DNA of 33,764 nt from Planctomycetota bacterium (GCA_031382605.1 JANMYZ010000162.1:1-33764); one strand, 5' to 3'. Counted from the first letter of the stretch, positions 1,595 through 32,737 are shown. Numbers and translations: made by a program. The notes: generated from the letters alone by a model not told the origin.

Positions 1595-1898
1595 TTGAGC
1601 CGTGAACCTCGTCGCGCAAACCGACCTGCGCGACGAGGCGGCGGATTCTGTAAAGCACTCTTAGATCTGCAAGGGGGGAAGTGAGAGGTTTCGGTGAATC
1701 TTTGGGGACGAATATTTATAGTGGGTGTGTGGTGCTGCGCGAACGCAGGCAGGGGTCGGCTTGATCTCCCGAATAGTCTGAGTGTATGTTAGGCAAACCT
1801 AAGTGCTGGCATCGACGTAGGTCATCTACGTAGGCACTGAGAGAGAGACGAAGAAGCGCTGCCTTTTACCAAGGTGGCTGCTTGAGGAGAAAGGGCCT

Positions 1899-3905
1899 GT
1901 GGCCGCTGACGCGTTACGCATTACTGACGGCGAATCACATTGCCGGATTCCTGATCCCGCGAGTGGGACGATCAATGCTCCGTTGTTGGAGATCGGATTA
2001 CAGGGTGCGTTGGTTGATACCAAAGTGCAGTTGGAGGCGAACGCCTATATTGATGTGACGTTGGCGCTCAAAGATCTCGCTCCACGGCAATTGTTCGCTC
2101 ATGTGGTGACGTCGGGCGACAAAGGTCTGAGTTTGCGTTGGCTGCATTTTGATCCGGGTGAAGAGACCAAACTTAAAAGTTTGCTTGAGGGCTATGCGCG
2201 CGCGCGTGCCGGCAATCAGGCATCGAATGCTCAATCTGGCACGCGGCGGGTGATTCGGCCGAAGGGCGATGCTCAGCCTGCGACTTCAGAGTTGACGTCA
2301 TCGACTCCGTCTGTGACTCGGCGGTTGGTGCGCCCGACCGCGTCGGCAATTACTCCGTTTAGTGATGTGCCAGTGACGCCGTCATCTTCGGCATCAAGCG
2401 CTCCTGATAACGCTTCGAGTGCTCGGATCGGGACGCGTCGTGTGGTGCGGCCAAGCCAGCAGCCGTTGACGCCATTTGCCGACGTGATCAGCGAGCCGAC
2501 GCCAGCCGTTGGTGAAGAGTCACGTATACATCAAGTGGTGATTGAGCCGACGGACCGCTTCGAAAAAATGATTGATGTTGGCGAGGAAAAAGCGCGTTCT
2601 GGTGCGCCTGCGGCCAAGCCCGCGTCAATGCCTGCTGCTTTGTCGGCCGCCGAGCCGTTAGTGCATACGCCAGCAATCGGCAATCCCGTGGTTTCTGCTG
2701 TCGCTAGCGGCGGAGCGTCAGCGGTTGAGCCGAAAGCTGTTCGTGATGAAAGCGGTGCGCAATCGTTGGCCGGCGGCAGGGCCGCAGTTTTAGGCAAAGA
2801 TGGGCGCATGGATATTGGCGCCTCGATTCGCAGTCACGCGAAGACCATTCGAGCGTCTGAGCTGGCATCTCGTCATGAGCGCGTGCGCGTGCTCAATATG
2901 GCGACGATCAAGAGCCTTATTACAGAGGCGGTTGAGGAGGCGGCATCATACCTGACGCGATCGCTGGGTGAGGCCGAGCGGAAACGATTACTCGAAGAAG
3001 CCGAAGAAGGATTTCAGGAGCGACTCAAATCATTTCAGGCTGAAAAGCAGTCGGCGGAAGAACGTGCGAAGCGCTTGAATGAGCAGCTTGAATCTGCGCG
3101 GAACTTACTGGAAGAAGAACGTAAGCGTTCGATTAAAGCCGATCAATTCACGGTTTCTGCTGAAGGACTTGGCGAGATCGAAGAACGTTTTCAACGTTTC
3201 CTCGATCGCACGTTGGTGGCCGGCAAGGTGCCGCCAGATGTGGAAGAAGATTTACGTCAAGTCATCGCGCGCGTTCTTGATAGTGAACGCGAACGGATAC
3301 GCGCCAAAGAGCTTGAAGCGCAGAACGCCAAGATCGAATTGCTTGAGCGAAAAATCAATCGCTTGGCGGGATCGCTGGAAGAATCCGAAAAGCAGCGTGA
3401 TGAAGCGCAGCGTTTCTCGGCGTTCCTCGAATCGCAGGGCGGTGGTGCGCTGCGCAACGTTTATGATGCTGGCATCAAATCAGAGGATCCGAACAAGGAG
3501 AAAAAACTTTCTTTGATGAAGAAGATCTTGGATGAAAATCGCGCTCTCCGCCAATCGCTTGGCATTCAACTGAACGAGGCCAAAGACGAGCCAAAGGCAG
3601 AAGTTAAAGTTGAAGCGAAGAAGGCTGATTCTTTCGTAGCGGCTCCTGTTTCTGCTCCTGCTCCAGTCGCTTCAGTTCCTGCTGCGGATGTCGCGCCGGA
3701 TGGCGAAGATGAAGTGAGCGCGGATCAATCGACTGACGCTGAAAGCGCGGAAAATAGCGGCGAACCCGAAGTTAATCCCGACGACGAAGTGTGGGAGGTC
3801 AAGCCGTTGGCCAACACCACCGAGGGCATCAATCAATCCGGTATCAAACGCATCGATGTCACCAATGTGCTCAACAAGGGGCCGCCACCACTCGAACGTC
3901 GCTGA
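1899..3905 (+). CDS. PilZ-like N-terminal domain / TRRxVRP-repeat / coiled-coil / acidic-tail protein (no named family recognised)
   Basis: The gene uses a GTG start at 1899 with a GAGGAG Shine-Dalgarno about 9 nt upstream. Residues 1-100 resemble a PilZ barrel (LLEIGLQGALVDT ... GLSLRWLHFDPGEETKLKSLLE) but lack RxxxR and D-x-S-x-x-G. Residues 114-196 carry 3 copies of TRR-x-VRP. Residues ~355-560 are heptad-rich in E/R/K/L. Residues ~596-633 form an Asp/Glu-rich tail. Confidence 0.8.
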   Translation: MAADALRITDGESHCRIPDPASGTINAPLLEIGLQGALVDTKVQLEANAYIDVTLALKDLAPRQLFAHVVTSGDKGLSLRWLHFDPGEETKLKSLLEGYARARAGNQASNAQSGTRRVIRPKGDAQPATSELTSSTPSVTRRLVRPTASAITPFSDVPVTPSSSASSAPDNASSARIGTRRVVRPSQQPLTPFADVISEPTPAVGEESRIHQVVIEPTDRFEKMIDVGEEKARSGAPAAKPASMPAALSAAEPLVHTPAIGNPVVSAVASGGASAVEPKAVRDESGAQSLAGGRAAVLGKDGRMDIGASIRSHAKTIRASELASRHERVRVLNMATIKSLITEAVEEAASYLTRSLGEAERKRLLEEAEEGFQERLKSFQAEKQSAEERAKRLNEQLESARNLLEEERKRSIKADQFTVSAEGLGEIEERFQRFLDRTLVAGKVPPDVEEDLRQVIARVLDSERERIRAKELEAQNAKIELLERKINRLAGSLEESEKQRDEAQRFSAFLESQGGGALRNVYDAGIKSEDPNKEKKLSLMKKILDENRALRQSLGIQLNEAKDEPKAEVKVEAKKADSFVAAPVSAPAPVASVPAADVAPDGEDEVSADQSTDAESAENSGEPEVNPDDEVWEVKPLANTTEGINQSGIKRIDVTNVLNKGPPPLERR

Positions 3906-4041
3906 CACCGTTTTTTGGTGACTATCAATTCCTGGTGGCGCATGTCGCTAGGATCGAGTATCACCTTTCCACTCTTCAATCCATCACCACCACATGGCTG
4001 TCATTCCCGACAGCCTCTGACCACTCCAGCAGGAGTTTCCT

Positions 4042-5091
4042 ATGTCTGAAATCGATTATCTTGGCATCGACCTTGGCACCAGCCGTACGTCGATCACTTC
4101 GTCCACCGGCGTCCGCACCACGGTGTGGTCCTATGTGGGTTATCCCAAGGATCACGTCGCCAAGAAGAAAATGGGTGGTCGTGAGATCATCTATGGCAAG
4201 GAGGCGCTCGATAATCGTATGGCATTGAACCTCTTCCGCCCACTCGCTGGTGGTTCGGTTAAGGTCAAGGGTGCGAAAGACACCGGCGAAACCCGGAAGG
4301 CAGTGAAAGATCTGCTCGAATACGTCGTCGCCCAGGCTAAGTCCGCCAAGGGCTCGACCATTTACGCCGTCATCGGTGCTCCTGCCGAAGCCAGCGTTGA
4401 AGGTAAGGCCACCATTCTTGATGCGGCTTCCAACTGCATCGACTCGGTGATCGTGACCTCCGAACCGTTTGCGGTCGCTTACGGTCTCGATTTCCTTGAC
4501 GATACCTTGGTGGTCGACATCGGCGCAGGTACCACCGATCTTTGCCGTGTTCACGGTAAAATGCCCGATCCGGAAGATCAGCGCACGCACACCATCGCTG
4601 GTGATGCGATTGATCAATTGCTGGCCAACTTGATCAAAGAAAAACATCCTGAGGCGCAGTTCTCCATCAACATGATCCGTGAGATCAAAGAACGCCATGC
4701 ATCCGTTTCGACGCGCATGGAAGAGGTGTTCGAGATGTTGCCTGTGGCCGGTAAGCCAACCAAGTTCAATCTGACGGACTTGGTTTACAAAGCTTGTTAC
4801 TCATTGGTTCCTCCTACCATCGCAGCGCTACAAGATTTGATTGCTACCTACGATCCGGAATTCCAAGCCAAGATGCGCGGCAACGTGTTGCTGGGCGGCG
4901 GCGGCTGTCGTATCCAAGGTCTCGGTCTCGCGATTGAGAAAGCCCTGGAAGAATACGGTGGCGGTAAGGTGAAGACGGTTGAAGAACCAGAATACGCTGG
5001 CTCGAACGGCGCGCTCAAAATCGCGTTGGACATGCCAGAAACGTTCTGGAAGGAATTTAAATCGATCAAGAGTGATGCCGCTAAGGGCTAG
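4042..5091 (+). CDS. MamK-family actin-like (ASHKA superfamily) protein
   Basis: The ATG at 4042 has an AGGAG 6 nt upstream. The protein shows full-length similarity to MamK as I remember it. Shared motifs are LGIDLGTS, VGYPKD, AVIGAPAEAS, SEPFAVAYGLD, VDIGAGTTDLC, PDPEDQ, KHPEAQ, DPEFQA and GGGGCRIQGL, with a C-terminal ...FW. The length of 349 aa also matches. Confidence 0.85.
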   Translation: MSEIDYLGIDLGTSRTSITSSTGVRTTVWSYVGYPKDHVAKKKMGGREIIYGKEALDNRMALNLFRPLAGGSVKVKGAKDTGETRKAVKDLLEYVVAQAKSAKGSTIYAVIGAPAEASVEGKATILDAASNCIDSVIVTSEPFAVAYGLDFLDDTLVVDIGAGTTDLCRVHGKMPDPEDQRTHTIAGDAIDQLLANLIKEKHPEAQFSINMIREIKERHASVSTRMEEVFEMLPVAGKPTKFNLTDLVYKACYSLVPPTIAALQDLIATYDPEFQAKMRGNVLLGGGGCRIQGLGLAIEKALEEYGGGKVKTVEEPEYAGSNGALKIALDMPETFWKEFKSIKSDAAKG

Positions 5092-5114
5092 GCTTGGGGC
5101 GAAAGCCTATTTTT
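5089..5114 (+). terminator. rho-independent terminator after the actin-like gene
   Basis: A 7-bp stem (taggctt/aagccta, 5089-5095 with 5103-5109) with a 7-nt loop is followed by ttttt (5110-5114). It overlaps the TAG stop codon. Confidence 0.65.
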
Positions 5115-5125: not shown

Positions 5126-5166
5126 AAACAACTCGACCCGCGCCATTGGCGCGGGTCGAGTTGTTT
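5126..5166. terminator. strong bidirectional hairpin between convergent operons
   Basis: A 19-bp perfect stem pairs aaacaactcgacccgcgcc (5126-5144) with ggcgcgggtcgagttgttt (5148-5166). It has a 3-nt loop, is flanked by T-rich sequence, and lies between gene ends at 5091 (+) and 5208 (-). Confidence 0.7.
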
Positions 5167-5207: not shown

Positions 5208-6131
5208 TTATTTGCCTTCAGGATTTGGCGATGGTGCCACGGGGGCAGCCACCGTCGGCGCAGGAGCGGGAGCGGCCGGCGCAATCGCTGGCGTTCCCGC
5301 AATCGCTGGCGTTCCCGCAACAGGTGCGGGAATATTTTCGGTGACTGGCGGCACGACCGGCGATAATGTGGCAGGGCTTATGGGTGCTGGAGCGATCTTG
5401 CTGCGTTTGAGCGCCCAGTATTCGCTTTTGGCTACTTCCACAAGTCTCGCGGCATTGGTGTCGGTACGGCTGATGACGCCTTCGAGTTTTGCGATGGCGT
5501 CATCGACTTTGCCAAGCGCTATCAAGGATTGCGCGGCGCCTAAAATAGCGGCGATTTGACGGTCAGGGTATTTCGATCCAGCAGCACCTTCAATTTTAAG
5601 ATAGCTACTTTCTGCCTCTGCATGTTTGCCGCTTTGGGAAAGTACGGCCGCTTCACTGAGGCCAACGGCCAATTCTAAATCGGGATCAACGGCTTTCATC
5701 GCCCATGAGCGCGCTTTTTCGGCAGTGCTCTTGGCGTTAGTGAGATCGTTTTCGGTACCGCGATCTAAATGAATTTGGGTAATTTCGATATAGGAACGCG
5801 CGCGGTAATACGGTGTGACGAGTTCGTCGTCGGCAACCGCTGAAAATGATTTTGCTGCTTCATCCAACTTGCTTTTACGGGTGATCTGATCTTGTGATTG
5901 ATCCGCTTCCATGCGGGCGGTCATGGCGTCCAGAAAACGACTTGCGCTGGCGGCAATCGGAGTGTCGCGGAGGCGGCCGTGAATCACTACTGAAGCAACG
6001 ATAATGGCCACTAAGATCACCAGGATCAATCCAATCCATTTAGTGATTCGCTGTGCCACCGTTTCTAAGCGGTCGTAGATAGGATCTGAATAACTCGTGG
6101 TTGGACCAGGAAGGTCGGGCTGCTGAGCCAT
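5208..6131 (-). CDS. membrane-anchored TPR-like protein with Pro/Ala-rich C-terminal tail (YfgM-like topology)
   Basis: This 307-aa protein has one N-terminal TM helix (WIGLILVILVAIIVASVVI). It is followed by helical repeat-like sequence (e.g. AEAESSYLKIEGAAG..., ALGKVDDAIAKLEGVI) and a P/A-rich tail. Confidence 0.6.
   Translation of the reverse strand: MAQQPDLPGPTTSYSDPIYDRLETVAQRITKWIGLILVILVAIIVASVVIHGRLRDTPIAASASRFLDAMTARMEADQSQDQITRKSKLDEAAKSFSAVADDELVTPYYRARSYIEITQIHLDRGTENDLTNAKSTAEKARSWAMKAVDPDLELAVGLSEAAVLSQSGKHAEAESSYLKIEGAAGSKYPDRQIAAILGAAQSLIALGKVDDAIAKLEGVISRTDTNAARLVEVAKSEYWALKRSKIAPAPISPATLSPVVPPVTENIPAPVAGTPAIAGTPAIAPAAPAPAPTVAAPVAPSPNPEGK
5281..5316. repeat. perfect 2 x 18-bp tandem repeat inside the CDS
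   Basis: The unit gcaatcgctggcgttccc occurs at 5281-5298 and again at 5299-5316. It encodes AGTPAI-AGTPAI in the tail of the TPR-like protein. Confidence 0.9.
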
Positions 6132-6166
6132 GATTGGGCACTTTCGAGAACGAGACAGGATAGAGT

Positions 6167-6625
6167 TCAGGGACCGGCAAGGATGGCCGATCGCAGGCGG
6201 AGGCGGATGGTAGTGCGCCCGTTGGTGCGTCCAGTCTCAAGAACCAATCGCTCTTGTCCCTTGTGCCACTGGAGTTTATCGGAGTGATTCGGTGCCGCTA
6301 TCCAGCCACGCGAGGTCAAATCTCGTTCCATCTCATCCAATAACTCGACGGCGGGCTGCTGCTTGGCTGATTCGCGTTGTTCCATAACCACTTCAAATCG
6401 ACGAACGCTTCCGCCCGCGAGGGTTACGGCAAGCTGATCCTCACCAGGGCTGAATGCATAACCGCGTGGCAGCGGGATGTCGGAAAATTGTTCCGGTGAA
6501 AACGCTGCCGGACCAGCGGCAGGAGGAAGCGCTCGCGGTTCTTCGCTGCAGCTCATCAACATAAAAACGGCTACGGTGCTGGTGAAAAAAGCGCAGCCTA
6601 GCCGGCCGAAACGTAGCGCGGTCAT
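6167..6625 (-). CDS. lipoprotein (unknown function)
   Basis: I trimmed the start to the ATG at 6623-6625 (MTALRFGRLGCAFFTSTVAVFMLMSC). This gives a signal peptide with the lipobox L-M-S-C. The start overlaps the stop of the FHA gene in an ATGA arrangement. Confidence 0.65.
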   Translation of the reverse strand: MTALRFGRLGCAFFTSTVAVFMLMSCSEEPRALPPAAGPAAFSPEQFSDIPLPRGYAFSPGEDQLAVTLAGGSVRRFEVVMEQRESAKQQPAVELLDEMERDLTSRGWIAAPNHSDKLQWHKGQERLVLETGRTNGRTTIRLRLRSAILAGP

Positions 6626-7314
6626 CACGCTTGTTTGTAGATAAAGTGACATCCGGCGATGGTGATCACATCACCAGGTTTCAACATGGCATCACTGACG
6701 TTTTTGCCATTAATCTTCACGGCTCGCCAACCGACGATGCTGATTAAGTGATGGCCACCAGCGGCTTTGACGATTTTCGCTTGGACTGGTTTAACCAAAA
6801 AACCTTTGGCCGGAATGTCCGCACCTGGGCTGGAGCCCATGGTGGTTTCGTCTTTGAGTAAAGACACATTCACCTGACGACCGCCTTGATCCAAGCTGAT
6901 TGCCATACGCTTCTGACCGGCATCGCCATTGGCCATCGCCTTGGCCAAAGCGGACTGGTCAACGAACATCGTCATTTCGCCGCCCATACCGGCGACGGCC
7001 TTCTTTTTGTCTTTGGGATCAGAGACGCCAACAGCGTCGTACAGCAAACTATGCTTGCCCATAATCACGCGATCACCGTTGTTGAGGCGGTGCTTGGTGA
7101 CCCGTTGGCCGCCGACGAAAGTCCCGTTATTGGAGCCTTTGTCGACCACTGCCCAGCCGTCGCCATCTCGAACCACTGAGCAGTGATGTCGAGAAACGCC
7201 AAGGTTATCGACTACGATTTCACAGTCCGTAGCGCGTCCCACGCGCATTTCATCTTTGTCGAGGGTGAAGTCACCTTGTGGGTCGGCTCCAAACATGACG
7301 GTAATCTTAGCCAT
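6625..7314 (-). CDS. FHA domain protein (canonical N-terminal FHA plus degenerate C-terminal FHA-like domain)
   Basis: I trimmed the start to the ATG at 7312-7314 (MAKITVMFG...), which has GGAG 6 nt upstream. The FHA signature is MRVGRATDCEIVVDNLGVSRHHCSVV...VVDKGSNNGTFVGGQRV...LNNGDRVIMGKHSL. The C-terminal part (TTMGSSPGADIP...VKINGKNV...LKPGDVITIAGCHFIY) has an FHA-like layout. Confidence 0.85.
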   Translation of the reverse strand: MAKITVMFGADPQGDFTLDKDEMRVGRATDCEIVVDNLGVSRHHCSVVRDGDGWAVVDKGSNNGTFVGGQRVTKHRLNNGDRVIMGKHSLLYDAVGVSDPKDKKKAVAGMGGEMTMFVDQSALAKAMANGDAGQKRMAISLDQGGRQVNVSLLKDETTMGSSPGADIPAKGFLVKPVQAKIVKAAGGHHLISIVGWRAVKINGKNVSDAMLKPGDVITIAGCHFIYKQA

Positions 7315-7514
7315 GCGAGACTCCTGCGAGGCGAGGACCATATTTTGGCGGAGCTGATGGTCAATGTTGGCTCGTAAGGCGTGGCGCACGACATGACTAC
7401 CGACCAATTGCCAGAGGGGGCGTTCGTTGAGTGAAACGAAGGTGTCGTGAGGTTGCATGGACTGATGCTTGCAAGACGAAAGGAGGTCGCCAGCATCCCT
7501 CGCCTTCGCAAACG

Positions 7515-7587
7515 GCTCCCATCGTCTAGAGGCCTAGGACACCAGATTTTCATTCTGGCGACACGAGTTCGAATCTCGTTGGGAGTA
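7515..7587 (+). tRNA. tRNA-Glu: tRNA-Glu (anticodon UUC), CCA not encoded
   Basis: The sequence is GCTCCCATCGTCTAGAGGCCTAGGACACCAGATTTTCATTCTGGCGACACGAGTTCGAATCTCGTTGGGAGTA. It has the Glu-type D-arm GTCTAGAGGCCTAGGAC, anticodon stem CCAGA/TCTGG, loop TTTTCAT and T-loop GTTCGAATC. The discriminator A is followed by ctt. Confidence 0.9.
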
Positions 7588-7651
7588 CTTTTTGTAAGCG
7601 GCGAAAAATTGGCGCCAGTCGCAAATCAGCAGCTAAGTAGCACCTTATGAA

Positions 7652-10600
7652 TCACTGATGCGCCTGGATGTCAGCGGCATCCATACGCGCAGCGAGCTGT
7701 TGTCCAAGTGCGCCGACGAGTGGTTCACGGCAAAAGGTAATATGGTCGCCGGGTGATTCGATGAGCTTGATGCCATCTTTAGCCCATGACCTCCATTCCA
7801 TACGTGGGTCATCTTCAGGACGTTCTGAAAGGAAGGTGTCCTTGGCTAACACCAACGTCACGCGGCCGGGGAAAACTTTCGGCGCGAAGTCACGGTAGAT
7901 TTCAGGGCCGCCTTCACCGCGGAAAGTATCCAGTGTTCGTCGTCTCACATTGGTGATTCTCTGCCTCAGGTACGTCATTGCGGAGAGCGGTGAAGATTGA
8001 TTCCACATTTTCCCAAAATGGTACCGTACGCGGTCACTGAAGCGATTTTTATCACTGCGAAATGTTGGGTCTGGTGGATCGAGGAGCGCGAGAAAAGAAG
8101 TTCGCTCGCCTTGGCTTTCGAGAAGATTCGCGATGGCGAAGGCGACGGTAGCGCCGAAGCAATGGCCTCCGAGCTGGTATGGTCCAGTTGGTTGTACGCG
8201 CCGCATGGAAGCGACGCATTGAACGGCAATGTTGGCAAAAGTAATTTCTGTCGTTTTGCGCTCTGCAGGCCAATCCAATGCATAGACTGGACGGTCATCA
8301 CCCAGATGGCGTGCGACATCGAGAAAACCACCGATGAAAAAGAATGGCCGGCGTTTGCCCTTGGCCTGCACAGTGACCAATAGTGGATCAGCGATTGGGG
8401 TCGCGAATACGCCTCGTTGGTTGAGCCGTTGGGCAAGGCTTCGGAGTGTCCGAGCCTCAAATACATCGCGCAATTCCAAAGAGATTGGCGAAACGTGACT
8501 CCATTGCGCCATCAGCCGGCCAGCCAGCAGCGAGTGCCCACCGAGTGCAAAGAAATCATCGTTGGCGCTGACTTTTTCCACGCTCAGAAGTTTGGCCCAT
8601 AATTCGACGAGACGTTGTTCGGTATCGCCCATCGGTGGAGTATAGGTATTTTGATTCGCGATGAGCGCGGGCGCAGGCAAACGGTTGCGATCGACTTTGC
8701 CATTCGGTGAGAGCGGCAAGGCATCAATGGTAACTAAAGCTTCAGGCACCATGTAAGGAGCGAGTATTTTTCCGGTATGTGCGACGATCGCATCAAGATC
8801 GATCGTCATGGTTGGTTTGAGTACGACGTAAGCGACCAAACGCATGGCGACTTTGCGATCACCGCAGGCAGCAACGACGCAGGATTTTACTGCGGGATGC
8901 GTAGCGAGAGCGGCTTCGACTTCGCCAAGTTCGACGCGATAGCCACGAATTTTGACCTGATGGTCAATGCGTCCAAGAAACTCGATGGTGCCATCAGCTA
9001 AATGTCGACCGAGATCGCCGGTTCGATAGAGCCGTTTTCCGCTGCGCGGATGGGTGATAAAACGTTCCGCGGTGCGCTGTGGATCTTTCCAATAGCCAAG
9101 TGCTACGCCCACGCCGCCGATGGCAATTTCTCCAGGGATGAGCGGCGGGCACGGTTCCAGCGCGTCATCAAGAACGTGCATGGTTTGATTACGCAGAGGT
9201 CCACCGTACGGGACGCTGGGTGCACGCAGATTCAGACGATCGGTGGGATGCAGAATCGACCAGATCGATCCTTCGGTGGCGCCGCCAAGGGAAAAGACTT
9301 GGCAATGCGGAGCTAGGGCGCGCAAGCGTCCTGGGAGAGTCACCGCGATCCAGTCGCCGCTGAACATAGCTAAGCGTAGCGTTGCCAGCGCAGATACGTT
9401 ATCGACGAAAGGCAGCAGCATTTCCATTAATGCCGGCACAGTATCCCACATGGTTACTCGTTCGCTGGCCATCAGTTCGAGCCACGCAGGCGGATGACGA
9501 AGCGCGGTCCCGACCGGAAATATTGCCGCGCCGCCAGCAGCCAAAACGCCAAAGGCGTCGTACACCGACAGATCAAAGGTTGCCGAGGACAGTGCGAGTA
9601 CGCGATCCGTTACGGTCACAACAAAGCGATCATTGAGATCAATAATCGTGTTGACCACCGCACGATGTGAAATAACCACGCCTTTGGGTTTTCCAGTCGA
9701 TCCCGAGGTGTAAATAATGTACGCGGGATCATCAAGCGTTGCGGGACACGGCGGCAGAGTTGACTCACCATGTTTCAAATCAATTTTATCAAGGTCGATC
9801 AATTCGGCTGGAGTAGCACCGAGAACCGACGATTGCCCACGGTGTGTAATCAATATTTGACATCCAGCACTGGCAAGAATCCAGGCCAAGCGATCGGGCG
9901 GATGCGTAGGATCAAGCGGAACATAAGTGCCACCTGCCATCATTATGGCGAGAGCGCAAACCACACCGACGGGTCCGTGCTCAGCGAAAATGGCCACCGG
10001 AGTCGAGCGACTGACGCCACGTTCTTGGAGTATCCGTGCTAAGCGTGCCGCTTGTTGGCAAAGATCCTGATGTGTCAGGCGTGCGTCGCCACCAACCAGG
10101 GCCAAGGCATTGGGCGTGCGAAGGCTTTGCGCCCATAAGAGATCGTGCAGTCGCTCACCCAGGTTTGGATGAGTCCATTGCGTGGCGTTATAAGTGGTTT
10201 CTAAAAAGCTCTGCCATGCGGGCTCGGCCAATGTGATCTCTGCGAGACGTGCCTGAGGTTGTGCGATGAAGCGAGCAAGCGTGGTGGTCAATACGGCGAG
10301 TACTTGTTCTGCGAAAGCTGCGTCCCAGCGCGTCGCATCATAAATGAAATTGAGATTGAGTTCGTCGCCGCCATTGGCTTCTAGCGTCAGTGGCGTGTTG
10401 GGGCGCGAAATCACGCGTACCTGTCGGCGATTCCACTCGGCATTTCGGCTACGTAGCGAGGAAATGAAATCGGCTGATTCGAACATCAAGATGACATGAA
10501 AGAGCGGTGTGCCGAGCGGTACTTGGCTGTTGGACTGTACGGCGATTAAATTGTCTAACTCATGGTGAGCATGATCACGTTGTTCGGCTCGCAGTTTGGT

Positions 10601-11503
10601 AAGAAGTTCTCCAACGGTTTGCTGTGCGCTCAAACCAACGCAGAAAGGCAGGGTGTTCATGAGCAATCCGACCTGAGTCTCAGCCCCAGGTACGGGCGCA
10701 TGTCGGCAGGCGCGGACGTTGCCGAATGCGATGTGGTCTTCTCGCGCATAACGTCCGAGCGTCATCGCTAAGGCGGCTTGTACGCAATTGTTCAGCGTCG
10801 CGCCGTGTGCGGCTGCGACCGCGCGAAGAGCTGCCGTTTGTGTACGATCGAGTCGTTTCTGTACCTGGCCAAAAGCACCAGGAGTCACGTCTATTGGTGA
10901 GACGAATGGGGCCGGCAGCGGCGTTGGTGCGCGCAACGAATCGAGGCGTTGTCGCCAGAATGCGTGATCAATCTGAGATTCGTGTGCGCGAACATAGTGA
11001 GCAAAGGTTGAAAATTCGCATGGTGGTGGGCCAAGCGTCTGACCGTTGGCGAGTGCGAACCAATCATCCAAAACGATGAGGATGGAGCGACCATCAAGTA
11101 ATGCGTGAGGAAAGCTCCACACCATCGTCCAGGTTTCAGGATCGGTGCGTGCCACGATCAGACGATGTAATGGCGGAGTATTGGTATCGATTCCGGCGTG
11201 GCGATCGTTGGCTAAATAACGGTTGAGCTCGACCTCAGGATTGGCGCTCCAATCCACAATTGATGATGTAATAATCAGGCGCTCATCAATGACTTGGACC
11301 GGGCCCGCATCATCCCATCTGAAGTGACTTCGGAGCACGGGGTGACGATCAGCGACGGCACGAAATCCCTGAACAAGCTGATCGGGGTGGAGGTCGGTTG
11401 GGAAATTAACCACCACTTGCTCCAGATCAAAACCATGACCTGGGTTGAGCTGCTGATTGATAAGCATGCCCTCTTGGAGAGGGGTTGTTTGAAAATGACT
11501 CAT
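7652..11503 (-). CDS. non-ribosomal peptide synthetase, C-A-T-TE
   Basis: I trimmed the start to the ATG at 11501-11503 (MSHFQTTPLQEGML).
- C domain, ~10214-11491: motif PHALLDGRS.
- A domain, ~8669-10156: AYIIYTSGSTGKPKGV, FDLSVYD, SGDWI, SLGGATE, YRTGDLGR, KIRGYRVELGEVE, PNGKVDR.
- T domain, ~8420-8626: FFALGGHSLL.
- TE domain, ~7694-8371: elbow GGHCFG with the Cys codon at 8159-8161, plus LLDPPDP and SPGDHITF. Confidence 0.93.
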   Translation of the reverse strand: MSHFQTTPLQEGMLINQQLNPGHGFDLEQVVVNFPTDLHPDQLVQGFRAVADRHPVLRSHFRWDDAGPVQVIDERLIITSSIVDWSANPEVELNRYLANDRHAGIDTNTPPLHRLIVARTDPETWTMVWSFPHALLDGRSILIVLDDWFALANGQTLGPPPCEFSTFAHYVRAHESQIDHAFWRQRLDSLRAPTPLPAPFVSPIDVTPGAFGQVQKRLDRTQTAALRAVAAAHGATLNNCVQAALAMTLGRYAREDHIAFGNVRACRHAPVPGAETQVGLLMNTLPFCVGLSAQQTVGELLTKLRAEQRDHAHHELDNLIAVQSNSQVPLGTPLFHVILMFESADFISSLRSRNAEWNRRQVRVISRPNTPLTLEANGGDELNLNFIYDATRWDAAFAEQVLAVLTTTLARFIAQPQARLAEITLAEPAWQSFLETTYNATQWTHPNLGERLHDLLWAQSLRTPNALALVGGDARLTHQDLCQQAARLARILQERGVSRSTPVAIFAEHGPVGVVCALAIMMAGGTYVPLDPTHPPDRLAWILASAGCQILITHRGQSSVLGATPAELIDLDKIDLKHGESTLPPCPATLDDPAYIIYTSGSTGKPKGVVISHRAVVNTIIDLNDRFVVTVTDRVLALSSATFDLSVYDAFGVLAAGGAAIFPVGTALRHPPAWLELMASERVTMWDTVPALMEMLLPFVDNVSALATLRLAMFSGDWIAVTLPGRLRALAPHCQVFSLGGATEGSIWSILHPTDRLNLRAPSVPYGGPLRNQTMHVLDDALEPCPPLIPGEIAIGGVGVALGYWKDPQRTAERFITHPRSGKRLYRTGDLGRHLADGTIEFLGRIDHQVKIRGYRVELGEVEAALATHPAVKSCVVAACGDRKVAMRLVAYVVLKPTMTIDLDAIVAHTGKILAPYMVPEALVTIDALPLSPNGKVDRNRLPAPALIANQNTYTPPMGDTEQRLVELWAKLLSVEKVSANDDFFALGGHSLLAGRLMAQWSHVSPISLELRDVFEARTLRSLAQRLNQRGVFATPIADPLLVTVQAKGKRRPFFFIGGFLDVARHLGDDRPVYALDWPAERKTTEITFANIAVQCVASMRRVQPTGPYQLGGHCFGATVAFAIANLLESQGERTSFLALLDPPDPTFRSDKNRFSDRVRYHFGKMWNQSSPLSAMTYLRQRITNVRRRTLDTFRGEGGPEIYRDFAPKVFPGRVTLVLAKDTFLSERPEDDPRMEWRSWAKDGIKLIESPGDHITFCREPLVGALGQQLAARMDAADIQAHQ

Positions 11504-11767
11504 TGGGTGAGCATACCTTGTTTTGAGGCATTCACATATACGTGGTTGATGGCAGCGTTGGATAACATGGAAGTTTTTTAGCCGAAAGGGGACAAGTGTG
11601 CGATGTAACGATGTTTTGACCACTACATCAAGAGTGGCGAGAGGATGAGCCCTTGGATCCGTTTATGATCGTTTGCAAGTGAAGGCGCGCAGAGTGCGGC
11701 GAATCGCGAATTTTCCTGCCTCGATAATCGGTCATCAAACGTCAGTCGATGAATCACGGCAAGCAAA

Positions 11768-12667
11768 TCACGCATCGTAGAGCGAAGCGCGGCCCCGGTT
11801 GCGGCCACCAAGTATCTTCAAGAGCCTCTGGCTTCGCAGGAACGAACGATAACCCCAGACGAAAAATGGGTTGTATTTGTTCATGCCCATAGTGATTTCT
11901 TTGATCACCTCGTTCCAATTGGTGTGGTTGGCGAAATTCAGCGCGACCGAGATGCTCGGCCCCAATAATCGCGTCGTATGCCACCAACCGGTGGGCAGGA
12001 TGACAATCTCTCCGGGTTCCTGCACGAAACGCACGAATTTTGCCTGTGCCAGCAAGGGAAAGCGCGTCAGGTCGGGTTCGTAAATGTTGGTGATGCGTGA
12101 TATCCGGCCATCGGCGTAGAGGAATGGCGTCTGGTCCGGAGCGTAGATGGTGAATTCTTTTCGACCGTACAATTGACAGAGGGCGACGTGGCATCCGCCC
12201 CAATCGTAATGCAGCTCGTTCAAACGCGTACCAAACCCACCGATGAAGAGCTCGGGATTGGCAGGGCCGTTCAGCCCATAGTTCACTGAACGCAGGAGGT
12301 ATTTTCCACGCAGCCAATTGGGGAAGACATACGGGATGAACGGATCGATATCGGTTCGCACCGCCGATGGCATGTTCCGAATAAAATGATCTTTCAGGTA
12401 CAGGCACGGATTGGTTGGCGTTGAAGCTATCACCTTGGGCAGGAATTCCCCCAGGGTCGTCTCTTCACCACCGACCACGATTTTTTCCGTGGGATAATGT
12501 GCGAGGAAAAATTCCGGAGTCCATTTTCCGAGCGCGGCCCAGGAATCGAGTGCTCCCGTGATTACTACGGGCACGTGTGGAGCCAGATAATCGCGGAGGT
12601 ATTCGTCGTAGGGAAGACGGTCACGGCGTACGACCGTTGCGGTTGCGCTGATATCCATGGTGGTCAT
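11768..12667 (-). CDS. JmjC / cupin-8 family Fe(II)/2-oxoglutarate-dependent oxygenase (putative tailoring hydroxylase)
   Basis: The 299-aa protein has the facial-triad layout LHYD (H-x-D) ... PTGWWHTT, followed by ISVALNF, which is typical of JmjC/FIH-like cupins. Its ATG (12665-12667) shares one base with the TAA stop of the megasynthase (TAATG). Confidence 0.8.
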   Translation of the reverse strand: MTTMDISATATVVRRDRLPYDEYLRDYLAPHVPVVITGALDSWAALGKWTPEFFLAHYPTEKIVVGGEETTLGEFLPKVIASTPTNPCLYLKDHFIRNMPSAVRTDIDPFIPYVFPNWLRGKYLLRSVNYGLNGPANPELFIGGFGTRLNELHYDWGGCHVALCQLYGRKEFTIYAPDQTPFLYADGRISRITNIYEPDLTRFPLLAQAKFVRFVQEPGEIVILPTGWWHTTRLLGPSISVALNFANHTNWNEVIKEITMGMNKYNPFFVWGYRSFLRSQRLLKILGGRNRGRASLYDA

Positions 12668-15600
12668 TACGGCGTCGCCTTTGCCAGGGTGAGACTTGGG
12701 TCCTGGCTGGGTTTTGTCGTGCCCTGATCAAGACAGCGCCGCAAGAGACCGCCAAGAATACGGACTCCAGGCTCACGGCAGAAAGTCACGTGATCACCGG
12801 GCGATTCATGAATGACCACGCCGTCCGTGCTCCATTGGCGCCACATCAGGCGGGGATCGCGTTCAGGGGTCACGGCCAGGTAGGAGTCCTTGGCCAGCAG
12901 CAGCGTCACTTGCCCCTGGAAGTGCGATGGCTCGAAATCGCGGTAAAGATCATCATCCCCACCATTGAGCAGGCTGCCCGCCATGTGGTTGCTCATATTG
13001 CGCAAACGTGCCCAGCTATAGCTCACCAGACCAAGAGGCCCCTGTTTGGTCAGTTGACGGAGATGGAACCAGACACGATCACGCCAGCGCGGTTTGATTG
13101 CGCACTGGGGCGGATCCGGTGGTTCCATCAGTGCCAGCAGAGCAACCTCTTCGCCAGCCTGCTGGAGTCGAACGGCGATGGAGAAGGCGACGACTGCGCC
13201 GTAACAGTGACCACCGAGCAGATAGGGGCCTCGCGGTTGGATCCGCTTCATGGCGGTGATGCAGCGTTTGGCGATGCTCGCGAAAGTCTCATCGCCTTTC
13301 GTATGTTCCGGACAATCAAGCCCGTAAAAAGGTTGGTCGGGGCCCACATGGCGGGCGATGTCGAGGAAACCGCCGATAAAGAAAAAAGGCGTGCGAGTCC
13401 CCACGGTCTGCAATGGCTGTAGAAGCGTGTCCGAAGGCAGTTTCTCAGGGTTACCACCAGCCAATTCCTGGGCTAGTTCTGCGATGGTCGGATGCGCGAA
13501 AATAGTCGTGAGCGGGACCTTGCGACCAAAGCTCGCCTCTAAACGCAGCGCCAGTTTCATCGCCAGCAGGGAATGCCCGCCCAGGGCGAAGAAATCGTCC
13601 GTGGTGTTGATGGCGACACCGGGGAACAATGCGCGCCATTGCTCTGCGATCTGTTCTTCGGTACCTGCCCTGGGTGGAACGGTTGGCGTTGCCTGGGTCG
13701 TCTGTGCCGGAACTGGAGCAGGAAGTGCCTTGCGATCAATCTTGCCGTTCGGGGTGAGTGGGAGCTCACCGAGGATGATGATCGCGGAGGGCACCATGTA
13801 GATTGGCAACAAACCGCGCAGATGACGACGCAGGTCGGCGGCCGAGGCCTCCGTCCCGCGATGCAAGGCGACATAGGCGATGAGGTTGGCGTCCGCCTGC
13901 CCAGCCGTGCGCAGGGCTACGACCACCCGTTGAGATATCGCCGGATGGCTGGCGAGTGCGACTTCGATGTCTCCCAGTTCGATGCGGAATCCTCGGATCT
14001 TGACCTGGTGATCGCTGCGTCCGAGGTATTCGATGCGTCCATCCGTGTGGTAGCGACCGATGTCGCCCGTGCGGTAGAGTTGGCGTGATCCTCCCTGGGC
14101 GAACGGGTCGGGAATGAAACGGGCCGTGGTCTGCTCTGGAAGACCCACATAGCCATGGGCCAGGCCATCGCCGCCGATGTAGAGCTCGCCGGGCACGCCG
14201 ATCGGTACGGGACGCAGGCGTTGGTCCAGTAGGTGCAAGCGGGTGTTCGCTACCGGGGTGCCCATCAAGACTGCGCTGGTTCCGCGCTCCACGCGATCGA
14301 GCGACGAATAGACCGTGGTTTCGGTGGGGCCGTAGCCGTTCCACAGTTCGCCAGCACGTGCGAGCAACGCATCCGCCAGATCACGCGGGATGGCTTCACC
14401 GCCGCACCACAGGCGGATGCGGCCATCACCTTTCCAGCCGGCCTCCAACAACATGCGCATGGTCACGGGCGTGGCTTGGAAAATCGTCGCACGACTGCTG
14501 TCCAACAGTTCGATCAGTCGTCGTGGGTCAGCGGCGGCCTCGCGTTCTGCAAGGACGATGCGTGCACCCACCGACAACGGCAGCAGTAGTTCTGCCACAT
14601 GGATATCGAAGGACAGCGTGGTGATCGCCAGCAGGGTGTCGCGCGCCGTGATGCCCGGCCGTTCACGCATCGAGCTCAGCAGATTGACCACCGCACGGTG
14701 GGGCACCTGGACCCCTTTGGGGCGACCGGTGGAGCCGGAGGTAAACAGCAGGTAGGCGAGGTCCTCTGGTACGACAGTCACGCGCGGCGCTTCACCGTCC
14801 GGTAGGCGCTGCTCCCAACCCGAGTCCATCAGGACAGTGGTGGTCTCGTGCCGAGAGAACGGTGCCCACTCCGTGGTCTGGGTGATCACCAGCGCCGGAC
14901 GGGCGTCTTCGAGAATCTGGGTGATGCGATGGTCGGGATAACGGGAATCGAGCGGCACATAGCAGGCACCAGCCTTGAGCACTGCCAGCACAGCGATTGG
15001 GAGCGCCGTGGTGCGTGGTAGGCAGATTGCCACCGGTGCCGTCCGGCTGGCGCCACGGGCAACGAGCTGTGCCGCCAAGCGCGTCGAAAGTTGATCGAGC
15101 GCGCGGTAGGTAAGGCGCTCTTCGCCCGCCACCACCGCGATGGCCTCCGGGGTTGCCGCCGCCTGTTGGGCGATGAGGTCGTGAACCGCGCGGTCCTTGG
15201 GATATTCCCGCGCCGTCGCGTTCCAGGTTTCCAGAATCTGGGTGCGCTCTGGCGCAGACAGCAGTTCCAGATCGCCGATCATCCGCGTCGGATCACGGGC
15301 CGCGTCATCAGCTAACGTCAGAAAATGACCGAGCCATCGGCGGATGGTGCTCGGCTCGAACAAATCGCGATTGTAGTGACAACACAGAGTCAGGCCCTGA
15401 TCAGTTTCCATCAAATTGAAATCGATGTCGAAGACCACACCAGCCTTGGCGTTGAGCTCGACCGTGGAGCGCAATCCGGAAAGCCCAAGATCTTTGAAAC
15501 CCGCCCGGTCGAAGTTGAACAATGCGGAGAGCAGAGGTGGGCGTGCAGGATCACGCGGCAGGGTGAGCGATTCCAACAGGCGGCCGTAGGTGATGTCCGG

Positions 15601-18600
15601 ATGTTCCTGGGCATCGAGCACCGCATCACGGACCGAGCGCAGTGCCGTCGCGAAGGGCGTATTCGCCGTCATCGACAACCGCAGGGGCAGGAAGTGCACA
15701 CAGTGGCCCGCAAGGCGGTCGACGCCCATCAACAACTGGCCGGCGGAGGGGATACCGATCACCAGGTCATCCTGGTGGCTGAGGCGAGACATCAGCGCGG
15801 TGAATGCCGCAAGCATGCCGGCGAATACGGTTGCTCCGCTGCGGCCGCAGACCTGTTGCATGCGCCGGTAGGCCGTTGCGTCCACCAACAGGCGTTCGGT
15901 GGCACCAGCGAAGGTGCGCGACGGACGTCGCGGATGGTCGAGGGGCAGATCAAGGTCCGGTGGCGACTCTCTGAACAGCGACCGCCAATGATCAAGCGAC
16001 ACGCGCCCCTCGGGACCATCGCGGCGTGCACTCTGCCACGCGGCGTAGGCATGGTACGGCACCGCTGCCGGCAAGTTCAGCGGCAGTCCGGTGACCAGCG
16101 CGCTGTAACACTGGCCGAGTTCATTGATCACCACGGCGAACGACCAGCCATCACACACCAAGTGATGAGTGATCAGTATGAGCACGTGGCGTTCTGATCC
16201 CAGGCGCACGAGCGAAGCACGCAGAAGTGGTGCGCAGGTCAGATCGAAGGGCGTAGCGGTGAGGGCGGCCCGGTGTTGCTCCAAACGTTGTTGGTTGTCG
16301 CCACTGGCGAGATCCACCAGCGGCAGATCCACCGCTACCTGGGCGACGAAGCGCTGGCATTCCCCGTCGGCATCGAAGCGCGACCGCAGGGCTGGATGCC
16401 GGTCGACCACCTGCTGCAAAGCCAGACGCAAGCGCGCGTGATCGAGCGGTCCATCGAGATGGAGCAGCACACCATCGTTGAAGGCGACACTCGCTTCCGG
16501 CGACAACTGCGAGGCGACCCACAACTCGCGTTGCACCTCGGTGAGTGGCAGCTGCTCCGCTAACGGCATGACGATGCTGGAGGTGTCGTCGCTCGGGCTT
16601 GGCTGCGCTGCGACGATGGCCACGACGGCGGGAACGGATTCCGGTGAAGTCTTTTCCTGAGCGGGATCTGGTGTTGTGCCACTCGCGGGGAGGAAGCCGC
16701 CGTCCGTCAGTTCCTGCAGACTGCCTTCCACCGCACGGATGAAGAGGTCGATTTCAGCATCGCCATGAGCGGTGGTCAGGAAGCAGGGGAAACCTTCCCA
16801 GATATGGATGCCACGCAGGCGCAGCAAATAATGCAGCAGACTGAGCATGCGATGTTTTGGTGCGAAGGCGAAGTAGAAGACCGAACCGAAGCGCTGCACG
16901 AATGATGGAACGCCATACTTTTTGAACAGTCCGTTGAGCGCATCTACCAAGCGCGTCGTGCGGCGGTTGAGGGCTTCCTGCAATGCCGGGCCTTGTTCCT
17001 TGAGGTGCACCAAGCACGCCTTGGCCGCCGCCATCGCCAACGGATGACGTACGAAGGTGCCGGCAAAGAACGTGACACCGATCTCGGGGAAGGAGTCGTC
17101 ACCGAAGCGCCATTGGCCGCCGTCGAGGGCATCCATGAAGCGGTTGGTGCCGGCGAGTATGCCGATGGGATGACCACCGCCGATGACTTTACCGTAAGTT
17201 GCCAGATCGGCCTTTACGCCGAACACACCCTGCGCGCCACGTGGATGTACTCGGAAGCCGGTGATGACCTCGTCCATGATCATCGCCGTGCCGCTGGCGG
17301 CAGTTATGCGACGGACCTCGTGGAGGAATTCTTTCGGTTGGAGATCCGGATGGCGGCTCTGCACCGGCTCGATCAAGACAGCGGCGAGATCATCGGCGCG
17401 TGCGCGGATGATCTCCAACGCCTGCTGGCTGCCGTACTCCAGGATGATGATGTTGTCGACTTTGCCTTGCGGAATACCTGGGGCGATCGGTGCGGAACGT
17501 AGGTCGTTGCCACGGTGGTTAGGACGTACCAGTACTTCATCGAAGGTGCCGTGGTAGTCGCCCAAAAACGAGACGATCGTGCTGCGTCCGGTGACCGTGC
17601 GGGCCAAGCGCATGGCGGCCATCACCGCTTCCGAGCCGGTGTTGCAGAAAGTTGCGCGTTCCAGGCCGGTGAACTCACTGACAAGTTTGGCGACTTCGCC
17701 GGCGAGTGGGGTCTGTGGACCAACTTCGATTCCAGCACTGAGTTGTTTGGTCACCGCATCGTTGACGAAATCCGGGGAGTGACCGAACAGGCTCGAACCG
17801 AAACCGTTGAGGATGTCGATGTACTCGTTGCCGTCCACGTCCCACAGACGTGCGCCCTTCGAGCGCACCGCCACCAGTGGATACACCATCTCCTTCCACT
17901 GTTGACGGAATCCCGCAACCACGCGGGGATCTGCTAAATATTCACGATGATGTTGCGCTTGGCGTTTGGATTCCTTGGTCTTCGCGGTGTAACGCACGAT
18001 GAAAGCATCGAGCCAACGTTGTTGATGCTCGGTGAGTCCGCCCGTGGGCCCGCGGGTAATCGGCTTGTAGGGACCAAACGCTTTGAATTCACCGGGCGCG
18101 GCAGGTTGCGCGGCGGAGGCTTCCGCCGCGCTTGGCGCAGCTGCCATGCCAGCGGTGCCACCGCTGAGTTGAGCCATCTGTTTGGACAACTCAGCAAGCT
18201 GCCGCTGCATCTGGTCCAGCATCGGATTACCGGTCGTGGCAGCGGGAGCGTCAGCCGCGCTCACGCCAACAGTGGGCAGCAGCGCGGGAGCCGCATGGTG
18301 TTCCACATATTCAGCAAGGCGCGCAACCGTACCGAGCTCATCGAGCAAGTGACGGAAGCTGATCTTGATCTTGAAACGTTGCTGGAGTGCGAGCGCGAAT
18401 TGGGTGAGGAACAACGAATCAAAACCTAATTCGATAAAGCTGATAGCGGTATCGGTTGCGCGATGATCAGCGCCGGATTGTTCCGACACCAATTGGCGCA
18501 GCAGTTCGATCAGCGCCGTATGGCGATCGCCGCTGGTGGCAGGCGCTGCCGTCACGGTCGCTGCTGCGGTGGTGGCCTGGTTTGCTGTCAGATCGGCGGT

Positions 18601-21261: not shown

Positions 21262-21312
21262 TTATTTCCGCTATTTGCTCATTTGTGGCGCGAGCTGCTG
21301 ATGTGGCGCGAG

Positions 21313-28595: not shown

Positions 28596-28603
28596 GATGT
28601 TTC

Positions 28604-32497: not shown

Positions 32498-32572
32498 GCG
32501 ATCTCGTTAAGGGCAGCTAACACAGGTCGGCGTAGCCGGAACCAAAGCGAAGACAACGACAGGAGAAGTGCT

Positions 32573-32637
32573 AACCACAGAGGACACAGAGGGAAATCGA
32601 AAGGTCTTTCTCTGTGCCCTCTGTGTCCTCTGTGGTT
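32573..32637. repeat. perfect palindromic (REP-like) element in the transferase-flippase spacer
   Basis: The 21-bp arms are aaccacagaggacacagaggg (32573-32593) and ccctctgtgtcctctgtggtt (32617-32637), separated by a 23-nt loop. The arms contain the internal direct repeat cacagagg. Confidence 0.85.
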
Positions 32638-32737
32638 TAGCCCTTCCCCTGCTTTCTTTACTTTCGTACGTGTAGCGATTTCTTCGGAAAGCACGGAGAA
32701 ATAGAACCTTAGTAGTATATTGGTAATCACGTCAGGC

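Follow-up and report, generated by a model that had tools for sequence, protein, structure and literature searches.

The locus described here raises the question of what an actin related to MamK, together with the gene directly upstream of it, does in a genomic setting where nothing else resembles a magnetosome gene. The two genes occupy positions 1,899 to 5,091 of a 33,764-nucleotide stretch of DNA from Planctomycetota bacterium (GCA_031382605.1 JANMYZ010000162.1:1-33764), which as a whole we refer to as the window. An earlier reading made from the sequence alone (here, the sequence-only reading) had placed two open reading frames (ORFs) in this part of the window, separated by a 136-bp gap containing a 7-bp hairpin, and had interpreted them as a filament and its adaptor by analogy with mamJ and mamK of magnetotactic bacteria. 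Both ORFs, the gap, and the hairpin were found where that reading had put them. The interpretation that we favor, and hold to be reasonably probable, is that the pair is a self-contained and probably co-transcribed cytoskeletal module, not a magnetosome one, in which a filament is combined with a modular coiled-coil adaptor or regulator. The parts of the locus are as follows.

1899..3905, + strand: partner gene, an ORF with a GTG start encoding 668 aa; PilZ head, linker, helical core, acidic tail, and C-terminal motif.
3906..4041, + strand: intergenic region of 136 bp, with the hairpin at 3996-4015 and a ribosome-binding site, AGGAG, at 4031-4035.
4042..5091, + strand: predicted MamK-like actin-fold ATPase, an ORF with an ATG start encoding 349 aa.

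We asked to which family the actin belongs. The sequence-only reading had matched it to MamK along its whole length, better than to MreB, ParM, or FtsA, and had listed nine MamK motifs. All nine are present (GIDLGTS at residue 8, VGYPKD at 32, AVIGAPAEAS at 109, SEPFAVAYGLD at 140, VDIGAGTTD at 158, PEDQ at 177, HPEAQ at 202, PEFQA at 272, and GGGCRIQGL at 286), and the full-length match held up in both profile and structure-database searches. Against NCBIfam, the actin scored 387.0 bits with the MamK model, a near miss of the curated cutoff of 400 (NF040964); 201.5 bits with the BeeR model, where the cutoff is 530 (NF053558); and 51 and 42 bits with the MreB models PRK13927 and TIGR00904, whose cutoffs are 293 and 366. 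The sole MreB model that it passed was the broad Pfam family MreB_Mbl (PF06723, 54.8 bits), and its match to Alp7A_like_C, at 18.1 bits, was under the cutoff of 22. As a control, MamK of AMB-1, taken from the PDB alignment, scored 545.8 bits on the NCBIfam MamK model. Other members of the window actin's clade scored 371 to 392 bits, and a representative of a sister clade (P0265, 420.5 bits) and a fusion protein (P0277, 406 bits) were above the cutoff. In the PDB, the actin matched MamK (5JYG/5LJV) at an E value of 5e-75 over residues 6-342 and BeeR (8R2N) at 1e-36, and it matched no MreB, ParM, FtsA, or Alp chain even at E <= 10. On trimmed columns it is 40% identical to AMB-1 MamK, 30% to BeeR, and 21% to E. 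coli MreB.

A bootstrapped neighbor-joining tree of 90 sequences and 333 columns, rooted on E. coli MreB (from locus L050), places the window actin in a compact clade with 100% bootstrap support, together with actins from metagenome-assembled genomes (MAGs) labeled Planctomycetota or Verrucomicrobia. This clade stands apart from that of AMB-1 MamK, the single labeled magnetotactic MamK in the tree, from the BeeR clade (8R2N), and from a clade made up of long fusion proteins, and MreB is set off from all MamK-like sequences by a long branch (100% support). The sequence-only reading had hinged on the actin not falling inside an MreB, ParM, or Alp clade, and the actin groups with MamK-like sequences instead. 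The catalytic and nucleotide-binding residues D10, G12, T13, E141, D159, G161, G163, T164, T165, and D166 are invariant in 19 of 19 clade sequences, and the positions equivalent to D17, E143, and D161 of MamK and the phosphate-2 loop are likewise invariant in the clade. The window actin aligns from residue 6-7 and has no N-terminal extension of the BeeR type. These data identify the protein, by homology, as a member of the MamK-like lineage, an ATPase of the actin fold whose catalytic residues are intact.

The MamK-like family is small and sharply defined. Among 1.84 billion representatives of 50% identity clusters, only 156 matched at E <1e-30, and the window clade comes down to about one of them (P0264, 65% identity). 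At E <1e-10 there were 5705 actin matches, a count that probably takes in more distant actin-like proteins, and the best 120 of the 5705 were all 71 to 95% identical. The description of the actin as an orphan MamK did not survive this comparison: it belongs to a large, highly conserved subfamily in Planctomycetota- or Verrucomicrobia-labeled MAGs, with a clade of its own. That clade is abundant, and its habitats are lakes, bogs, and groundwater. Several of the carrier lake MAGs (L016, L017, L026, and L035) were deposited as 'Candidatus Kuenenia stuttgartiensis' or 'Akkermansia muciniphila', species names that look implausible for such samples; therefore, the phyletic spread given by taxon labels is to be read with caution.

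Is the upstream gene a regular companion of this actin? We assembled 46 loci from species-representative genomes, about 460 kb in all, and took their six-frame ORFs. A homolog of the partner lies directly 5' of the actin, on the same strand and with a gap of 0 to 250 bp, in 33 of the 33 Planctomycetota-labeled loci with enough upstream DNA. Thus, the synteny of the upstream gene, a further point on which the sequence-only reading had hinged, holds in every relative examined. When the ORFs of the 46 loci were clustered, no real gene other than the partner proved to be conserved next to the actin; the remaining recurrent families were alternate-frame shadows of these two genes. An iterative search with a profile of the partner's core over all six-frame ORFs matched only ORFs adjacent to an actin. 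Partner homologs number 182, many of them full-length, and are labeled Planctomycetota. The pairing of actin and partner exceeds chance, and adjacency with one coiled-coil family is obligatory across at least three subclades. Over the loci sampled, identity to the window copy is 66 to 99% for the actin versus 34 to 91% for the partner core: the actin is far more constrained. Since neither the grouping of the actin nor the synteny of its neighbor speaks against it, filament plus adaptor stays the best reading of the pair.

Four MAGs contain two actin-plus-partner pairs (L028/L039, L031/L040, L038/L043, and L037/L045), and each actin in them has its own partner. One copy of a duplicated pair usually has a short partner, of 388 to 440 aa, with PilZ joined directly to the core.

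The loci sit on contigs of up to 9.2 Mb amid ordinary chromosomal genes and have no conserved replication-gene neighbor. This setting bears on whether the pair is a DNA segregation system of the ParMRC or Alp type, with the actin as the motor and its neighbor as the centromere-binding protein. An actin-like ATPase beside a co-oriented adaptor gene is the layout of ParM/ParR and Alp7A/Alp7R, the subthreshold match to Alp7A_like_C points in the same direction, and three partner homologs (P0135, P0153, and P0174) are annotated 'AcrR family transcriptional regulator' by JGI. However, Pfam and NCBIfam find no helix-turn-helix in these three homologs, and the window partner, which is large and lies upstream of the actin, matches no helix-turn-helix or ribbon-helix-helix family. 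Repeat scans gave no iterated centromere-like repeats, no ParM or Alp structure was matched in the PDB search described above, and the genes are chromosomal. With no affinity in sequence or structure to these systems, we regard a role in segregation as very unlikely.

Another explanation is that the actin is a true magnetosome MamK of a cryptic magnetotactic member of the Planctomycetota, with the gene cluster elsewhere in the genome. The mamK gene of magnetotactic bacteria is part of the magnetosome gene cluster. MamK is by sequence the closest family to the window actin, similar over the full length at ~40% identity and with the same catalytic residues, the actin's score comes near the family cutoff, and magnetotactic Planctomycetota MAGs have been reported in the literature. 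However, no magnetosome-associated family matched among the scanned ORFs of the 33.8-kb window, which bears out what the sequence-only reading had said of the genes around the pair, and no link to magnetosomes was seen in the window or in the loci examined, where the partner is the only conserved neighbor of the actin. The score is still under the cutoff (387 versus 400, with AMB-1 MamK at 546), the clade is distinct from that of AMB-1 MamK, and it is abundant across lakes, bogs, and groundwater. We consider a cryptic magnetosome system extremely unlikely.

We then asked what kind of protein the partner is. An AlphaFold2 (AF2) model was built on 65 homologs, and the parts of the protein, with the predicted local distance difference test (pLDDT) score where it defines them, are given below.

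1899..2213, + strand: predicted PilZ-fold beta-barrel plus helix, residues 1-105 (AF2 pLDDT >90; Foldseek).
2214..2783, + strand: disordered linker rich in Pro, Ala, Ser, and Thr, residues 106-295 (pLDDT <50).
2241-2261, 2316-2336, and 2433-2453, + strand: linker motifs TRRVIRP, TRRLVRP, and TRRVVRP, respectively.
2352-2366 and 2469-2483, + strand: linker motifs TPFSD and TPFAD, respectively.
2784..3563, + strand: conserved helical core, residues 296-555 (invariant columns; long helices in the AF2 model).
2799-2921, + strand: near-invariant segment of the core, residues 301-341, DGRMDIGASIRSxAKTVRASELAxRHxRVRVLNMATIKxLI.
2883-2942, + strand: core block 1, VRVLNMATIKSLITEAVEEA.
3333-3389, + strand: core block 2, IELLERKINRLAGSLEESE, residues 479-497, of the form IxLLE(K/R)KIxRLxxxLEExE.
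3471-3551, + strand: core block 3, GIKSEDPNKEKKLSLMKKILDENRALR, residues 525-551, of the form G(L/I)xxxDPxKxxKLxLMKxIxxENxxLR.
3564..3818, + strand: acidic disordered tail, residues 556-640 (21 D+E versus 6 K+R).
3774-3797, + strand: NPDDEVWE motif in the tail; P627, D628, D629, and W632 are invariant in the PilZ-type family.
3840..3902, + strand: C-terminal motif, GIKRIDVTNVLNKGPPPLERR, of the form (V/I)K(K/R)(I/M)...PPPL.

In the AF2 model a disordered stretch covers residues 108-295, helices extend over about residues 306 to 554, and the acidic tail is followed by a short C-terminal element. The core modeled alone is all-helical; the short helices at residues 306-327 have moderate confidence (pLDDT 53-71). 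No analogue of the core fold was found in the PDB (best E value, 4.7). Pfam and NCBIfam gave only a weak N-terminal PilZ match on the partner, and the core is covered by neither. Within residues 115-195, TRRVxRP occurs three times and TPF(S/A)D twice; in the family alignment R116 and R117 are invariant, and T179, R180, R181, P153, and F154 are nearly so. The sequence-only reading had described repeats, a coiled-coil stretch, and an Asp/Glu-rich tail, and all three were confirmed by the linker motifs, the predicted helices, and the composition of the tail. The strong conservation of the core segments, the linker motifs, the tail motif (NPDDxxWE in the family), and the C-terminus had not been singled out in it.

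To find out which of these parts accompany the actin, we took three profiles (core, N-terminal domain, and C-terminal motif region) and ran each over all six-frame ORFs of the assembled loci. In an alignment across lineages, blocks 2 and 3 are common to all of them. More distant Planctomycetota have short partners of 372 to 440 aa, in which PilZ is joined almost directly to the core. The sister actin clade, which is ~51% identical and comes from Planctomycetota MAGs (NCBI label, 'MamK family actin-like protein'), has unannotated core-matching ORFs 5' of the actin in 4 of 4 loci (E values of 5e-20, 3e-18, 3e-12, 2e-10, and 4e-7). These partners, at 209 to 365 aa, are essentially the core alone, and PilZ is absent. 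The PilZ protein is absent from the Verrucomicrobia-labeled loci as well, and there core matches flank the actin on both sides: the C-terminal two-thirds of the core is found in a 446- to 468-aa ORF ~100 nt downstream (E about 1e-45), and its last part in a 500- to 557-aa ORF upstream (E about 1e-24).

The other parts are distributed differently. The linker motifs are confined, with one exception, to PilZ-bearing partners, and the acidic tail is non-repetitive and conserved only among close relatives. PilZ and PPPL occur together in 89 partners; 56 have PilZ without a strict PPPL, 23 have neither, and 3 have PPPL without a detected PilZ (L011, whose ORF is 5' truncated, L036, and one database homolog). 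By comparison of the sequences, we conclude that the N-terminal head is exchangeable and that PilZ, like the acidic tail and the repeats, is a lineage-specific add-on. Because the core is present in every lineage and the heads, tail, and repeats are present in some, the constant companion of the actins in this MamK-like branch is the helical core.

The upstream ORF of the Verrucomicrobia-labeled loci has a hydrophobic segment that we read as a putative transmembrane helix and an N-terminus that looks weakly LysM-like; it has no Pfam LysM match, and the LysM/FimV resemblance comes from reading the sequence. Pfam LysM was matched, below threshold at 18.2 bits, in one of three ORFs, and this was the ~660-aa third ORF described below and not the upstream one; LysM/FimV-like heads were kept as a lead only. 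In two loci (L023, 5155-11707, and L048, 8180-14721) the genes form a four-gene cluster on one strand, made up of the upstream ORF, which here also has a proline-rich stretch, the actin, the 446- to 468-aa core ORF, and a third ORF of ~660 aa. The third ORF has a block-3-like motif by eye only, and its L048 homolog reaches an E value of 0.035 on the core profile.

A separate clade of proteins of 500 to 1232 aa (P0277-P0298 and others) begins with a coiled coil, continues with a very long region that is acidic or of low complexity, and ends in a MamK-like domain. We considered whether they are fusions of the present partner to an actin and rejected this, as their N-terminal extensions match none of the core, C-terminal-motif, and PilZ profiles. 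In style they do resemble the partner, with an acidic disordered region behind a coiled coil, and they may represent an 'adaptor plus actin' layout within one polypeptide.

What does the head of the window partner do? All of the top 39 PDB matches of residues 1-105 in Foldseek are PilZ domains, at a TMt of about 0.7; the PilZ domain of Alg44 comes first (E 5e-6, TMt 0.70), followed by YcgR, PA0012, MrkH, MapZ, and MotI. On the Pfam PilZ model (PF07238) the window partner scores 18.2 bits, under the gathering score of 22.5, and 17 of the 65 family members match at E <= 0.01, the best at 1.4e-6. The RxxxR motif is absent from all aligned partner members shown (the N-terminus reads LRITDGESHCR), and D/NxSxxG is degraded to E(I/L)(G/S)xxG in the family and to E-I-G-L-Q-G in the window copy. 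The N-terminus is thus predicted to be a true PilZ fold without the canonical motifs for cyclic di-GMP (c-di-GMP), and the earlier description of it as a PilZ-like barrel that has lost those motifs agrees with the model, the Foldseek matches, the missing RxxxR, and the degraded second motif.

One possibility is that the head nevertheless binds c-di-GMP, through a non-canonical site, and so switches the binding or localization of the filament. The predicted fold, the second motif partly kept as ExSxxG/ExGxxG, and the members matched by Pfam would all fit such a c-di-GMP-controlled cytoskeleton, and the best structural matches are c-di-GMP-bound PilZ domains. However, RxxxR is needed for c-di-GMP binding, and PilZ proteins of P. 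aeruginosa and Xanthomonas that lack it do not bind; no aligned member shown has this motif, and the sister and Verrucomicrobia-labeled lineages do without the head. We find a c-di-GMP switch quite unlikely. With RxxxR missing from the whole family, the head would most likely act as a protein-protein adaptor rather than as a c-di-GMP sensor, as non-c-di-GMP-binding PilZ proteins of Pseudomonas and Xanthomonas do. Those of P. aeruginosa and Xanthomonas (4FOU and 3PH1) have, like the window partner, a PilZ fold with lost c-di-GMP motifs; they are tied to the type IV pilus ATPase, whereas here the fold is the head of a 668-aa coiled-coil protein that is genetically tied to an actin.

These results allow the comparison with MamJ to be made more exactly. 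In both cases the partner gene is directly upstream of the actin gene on the same strand. MamJ of Magnetospirillum has a central acidic, repetitive domain of long tandem repeats. In contrast, Tandem Repeats Finder gave only trivial 6- to 13-nt repeats over 1899-3905, and the conserved part of the window partner, compared with MamJ by description only, is its helical core. Of the mamJ-mamK analogy, the pairing and the affinity to MamK stand, and the likeness to MamJ itself is positional and logical only, because the acidic tail, the repeats, and PilZ are lineage-specific while the core accompanies the actin everywhere. In D. magneticus RS-1, MamK has interaction partners among the coiled-coil Mad proteins (PMC12748827), and two of these, Mad25 and Mad26, resemble the window partner in being rich in coiled coil, a likeness that is again one of description. 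By analogy, that Mad network, together with Magnetospirillum MamJ, is the closest experimental precedent for the logic of a filament and its partner.

In the model that we favor, the actin would form filaments in an ATP-dependent manner, like MamK, BeeR, and saltatorellin, and the partner would dimerize via its long helices. The conserved core would bind or regulate the filament, and the head, the linker motifs TRRVxRP and TPFxD, and the C-terminal PPPL tail would connect it to a lineage-specific site or cargo. Alternatively, rather than tethering cargo, the partner may mainly regulate assembly (as a nucleator, bundler, stabilizer, or turnover factor), with the heads tuning where and when it acts. 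MamJ and LimJ promote MamK dynamics, which is a parallel for this second explanation. It would suit the core being the best-conserved part and being found with the actin whatever the head, the stronger constraint on the actin, and the sister-clade partners, which show no obvious cargo-binding domain; however, the heads and the conserved linear motifs resemble targeting or tethering devices. A partner that mainly regulates assembly is, in our judgment, a minor but real possibility, and it is compatible with the adaptor model rather than exclusive of it.

The expression of the two genes was also considered. The following elements surround them.

1810..1834, + strand: tandem 12- to 13-nt direct repeat in two copies (CATCGACGTAGG / CATCTACGTAGG), 65-90 nt 5' of the partner start codon.
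3996-4015, + strand: 7-bp hairpin, GGCTGTC-ATTCCC-GACAGCC, within 3906-4041.
5089..5109, + strand: hairpin of terminator type with a T-run after it, overlapping the stop codon of the actin gene (consensus scan).
5126..5166, no strand assigned: perfect 20-nt inverted repeat between the convergent actin and a 307-aa ORF at 5208-6131 (- strand).

The AGGAG site, a gap without a terminator, and terminator-like elements only 3' of the actin are consistent with co-transcription. The hairpin and T-run at 5089-5109 are the probable end of a two-gene transcription unit, and the inverted repeat at 5126-5166 is probably a bidirectional terminator. The direct repeat at 1810-1834 is possibly an operator or a promoter-associated element, on weak evidence. 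The RNA of 3906-4041 is predicted to be unusually stable (z = -4.1), with 0 of 200 shuffles folding as well. The hairpin at 3996-4015, whose stem shows wobble or compensatory changes in the 9 of 10 relatives that keep it, lacks a U-tract and is therefore not an intrinsic terminator. Standing ahead of the ribosome-binding site of the actin, it may set the relative expression of partner and actin. Elsewhere in the intergenic region there are a further stem (about 3930-3953) and an almost invariant element, GTATCA; a search of Rfam with 3906-4041 gave no match.

Several points weigh against the cytoskeletal module as we describe it. The branching order among the MamK-like clades is weakly supported, with bootstrap values of 0 to 59 at the deeper nodes, and every carrier is an uncultured MAG. 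Polymerization of the actin and its contact with the partner are proposed from sequence and by analogy. The conserved adjacency argues for a functional linkage of the two genes and not for binding of their products. Since the core has no relative of known function, its role as the filament-binding element would follow from its universality alone. A correlation of r = 0.96 between actin and partner identities adds nothing, because shared ancestry predicts such a correlation. Finally, the terminator and promoter pattern scans are at chance level; the terminator consensus scan of the region found 4 sites versus 4.5 expected by chance.

The remainder of the window holds genes of other kinds. Its G+C content is about 50 to 66%, with 60 to 66% over ~13-22 kb versus 50 to 57% elsewhere. 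Among the scanned ORFs we found NUDIX, FHA, nonribosomal peptide synthetase (NRPS)/polyketide synthase (PKS), JmjC, beta-helix, and glycosyl/sugar transferase families, and neither mreC nor mreD. A search for defense systems with PADLOC gave nothing meaningful (best score, only 16.9 bits). The genes for tRNA-Asp(GTC) and tRNA-Val(TAC) (1419-1594, - strand) closely precede the partner gene and face the other way. Convergent with the actin is a trio of genes at 5208-7458 (- strand), comprising the 307-aa ORF at 5208-6131 and a 161-aa ORF at 6167-6652, both without a Pfam match, and an FHA gene at 6625-7458 for a 277-aa protein with two FHA domains. We rejected this trio as part of the module, since it is syntenic in only 8 to 10 loci, mostly close relatives, and convergent with the actin. 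An FHA-kinase gene is near the actin-partner pair in locus L047. A tRNA-Glu(TTC) gene (7515-7588, + strand) lies between the FHA gene and the first gene of a hybrid NRPS/PKS cluster that extends over 7652-23238 (- strand).

7652-11623, - strand: C-A-T-TE NRPS.
11768-12667, - strand: JmjC/cupin hydroxylase.
12667-21261, - strand: KS-AT-aminotransferase-C-A-T-TE megasynthase, 2864 aa.
21313-23238, - strand: stand-alone A-T protein.

Beyond it, a co-oriented run at 23428-33718 (- strand) consists of two large beta-helix/He_PIG proteins, a GT2 glycosyltransferase, three Pfam-less ORFs, and a Bac_transf sugar transferase, which suggests a surface polysaccharide or adhesin locus.

How does the pair relate to actins already described in non-magnetotactic bacteria? 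Saltatorellin is a MamK-like actin that forms filaments in E. coli and M. gryphiswaldense (bioRxiv 10.1101/817700). Like the window actin, it comes from a non-magnetotactic, Planctomycetes-related lineage (Saltatorellus/Saltatorellota); unlike the window actin, it has no described partner gene. It is probably a relative of the sister actin clade or a member of it, and its termini, deduced from published primers, had no match among the 413 proteins compared. BeeR of Verrucomicrobiota, which polymerizes with ATP (PMC11929497) into a three-stranded tubular form (8R2N), is likewise a MamK-related actin of non-magnetotactic bacteria of the Planctomycetes-Verrucomicrobia-Chlamydiae (PVC) group. In contrast to the window actin, which is ~30% identical to it, scores 201 bits versus its cutoff of 530, and stands in a separate clade, BeeR has a disordered N-terminal extension as its hallmark. 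Published accounts also describe an 'actin-like protein' of 'Ca. Uabimicrobium', and 'planctobacterial MamK' is mentioned in passing. Since MamK-like actins are known from non-magnetotactic PVC bacteria, the actin itself is of an already known kind. In open-access text we found no paper linking PilZ and MamK, and a 2025 review of the phylum mentions neither MamK nor a cytoskeleton. The module of an actin and a core partner with exchangeable heads thus appears to be undescribed in open-access text.

The finding matters for how these bacteria divide and hold their shape. Planctomycetota are without FtsZ, and MreB, FtsI, and FtsW were all deletable in the one model species tested (PMC6952346). 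In an mreB deletion strain of P. limnophila, A22 still blocks budding (PMC6952346). This effect in a strain without mreB could hint at a second actin target. MamK filaments themselves are reported to be insensitive to A22. Against this background, the pair is a concrete candidate cytoskeleton in a phylum without the canonical machinery. In its most far-reaching form, the proposal would be an undescribed cytoskeletal system of Planctomycetota and related PVC bacteria, in which the ~90 residues of blocks 2 and 3 dock MamK-like filaments and swappable heads plug the filament into the envelope or the poles. We put this form forward as doubtful. If it were true, the system could serve budding, division, shape change, or the positioning of organelles or membranes in these FtsZ-less bacteria. 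The carriers found are all uncultured, which is a practical limit; the motifs and domain boundaries are now defined for binding and localization experiments. The logic of MamK with a coiled-coil or adaptor protein reaches well beyond magnetosomes, and a conserved core with swappable heads suggests a general way in which MamK-like filaments may be coupled to cellular sites.

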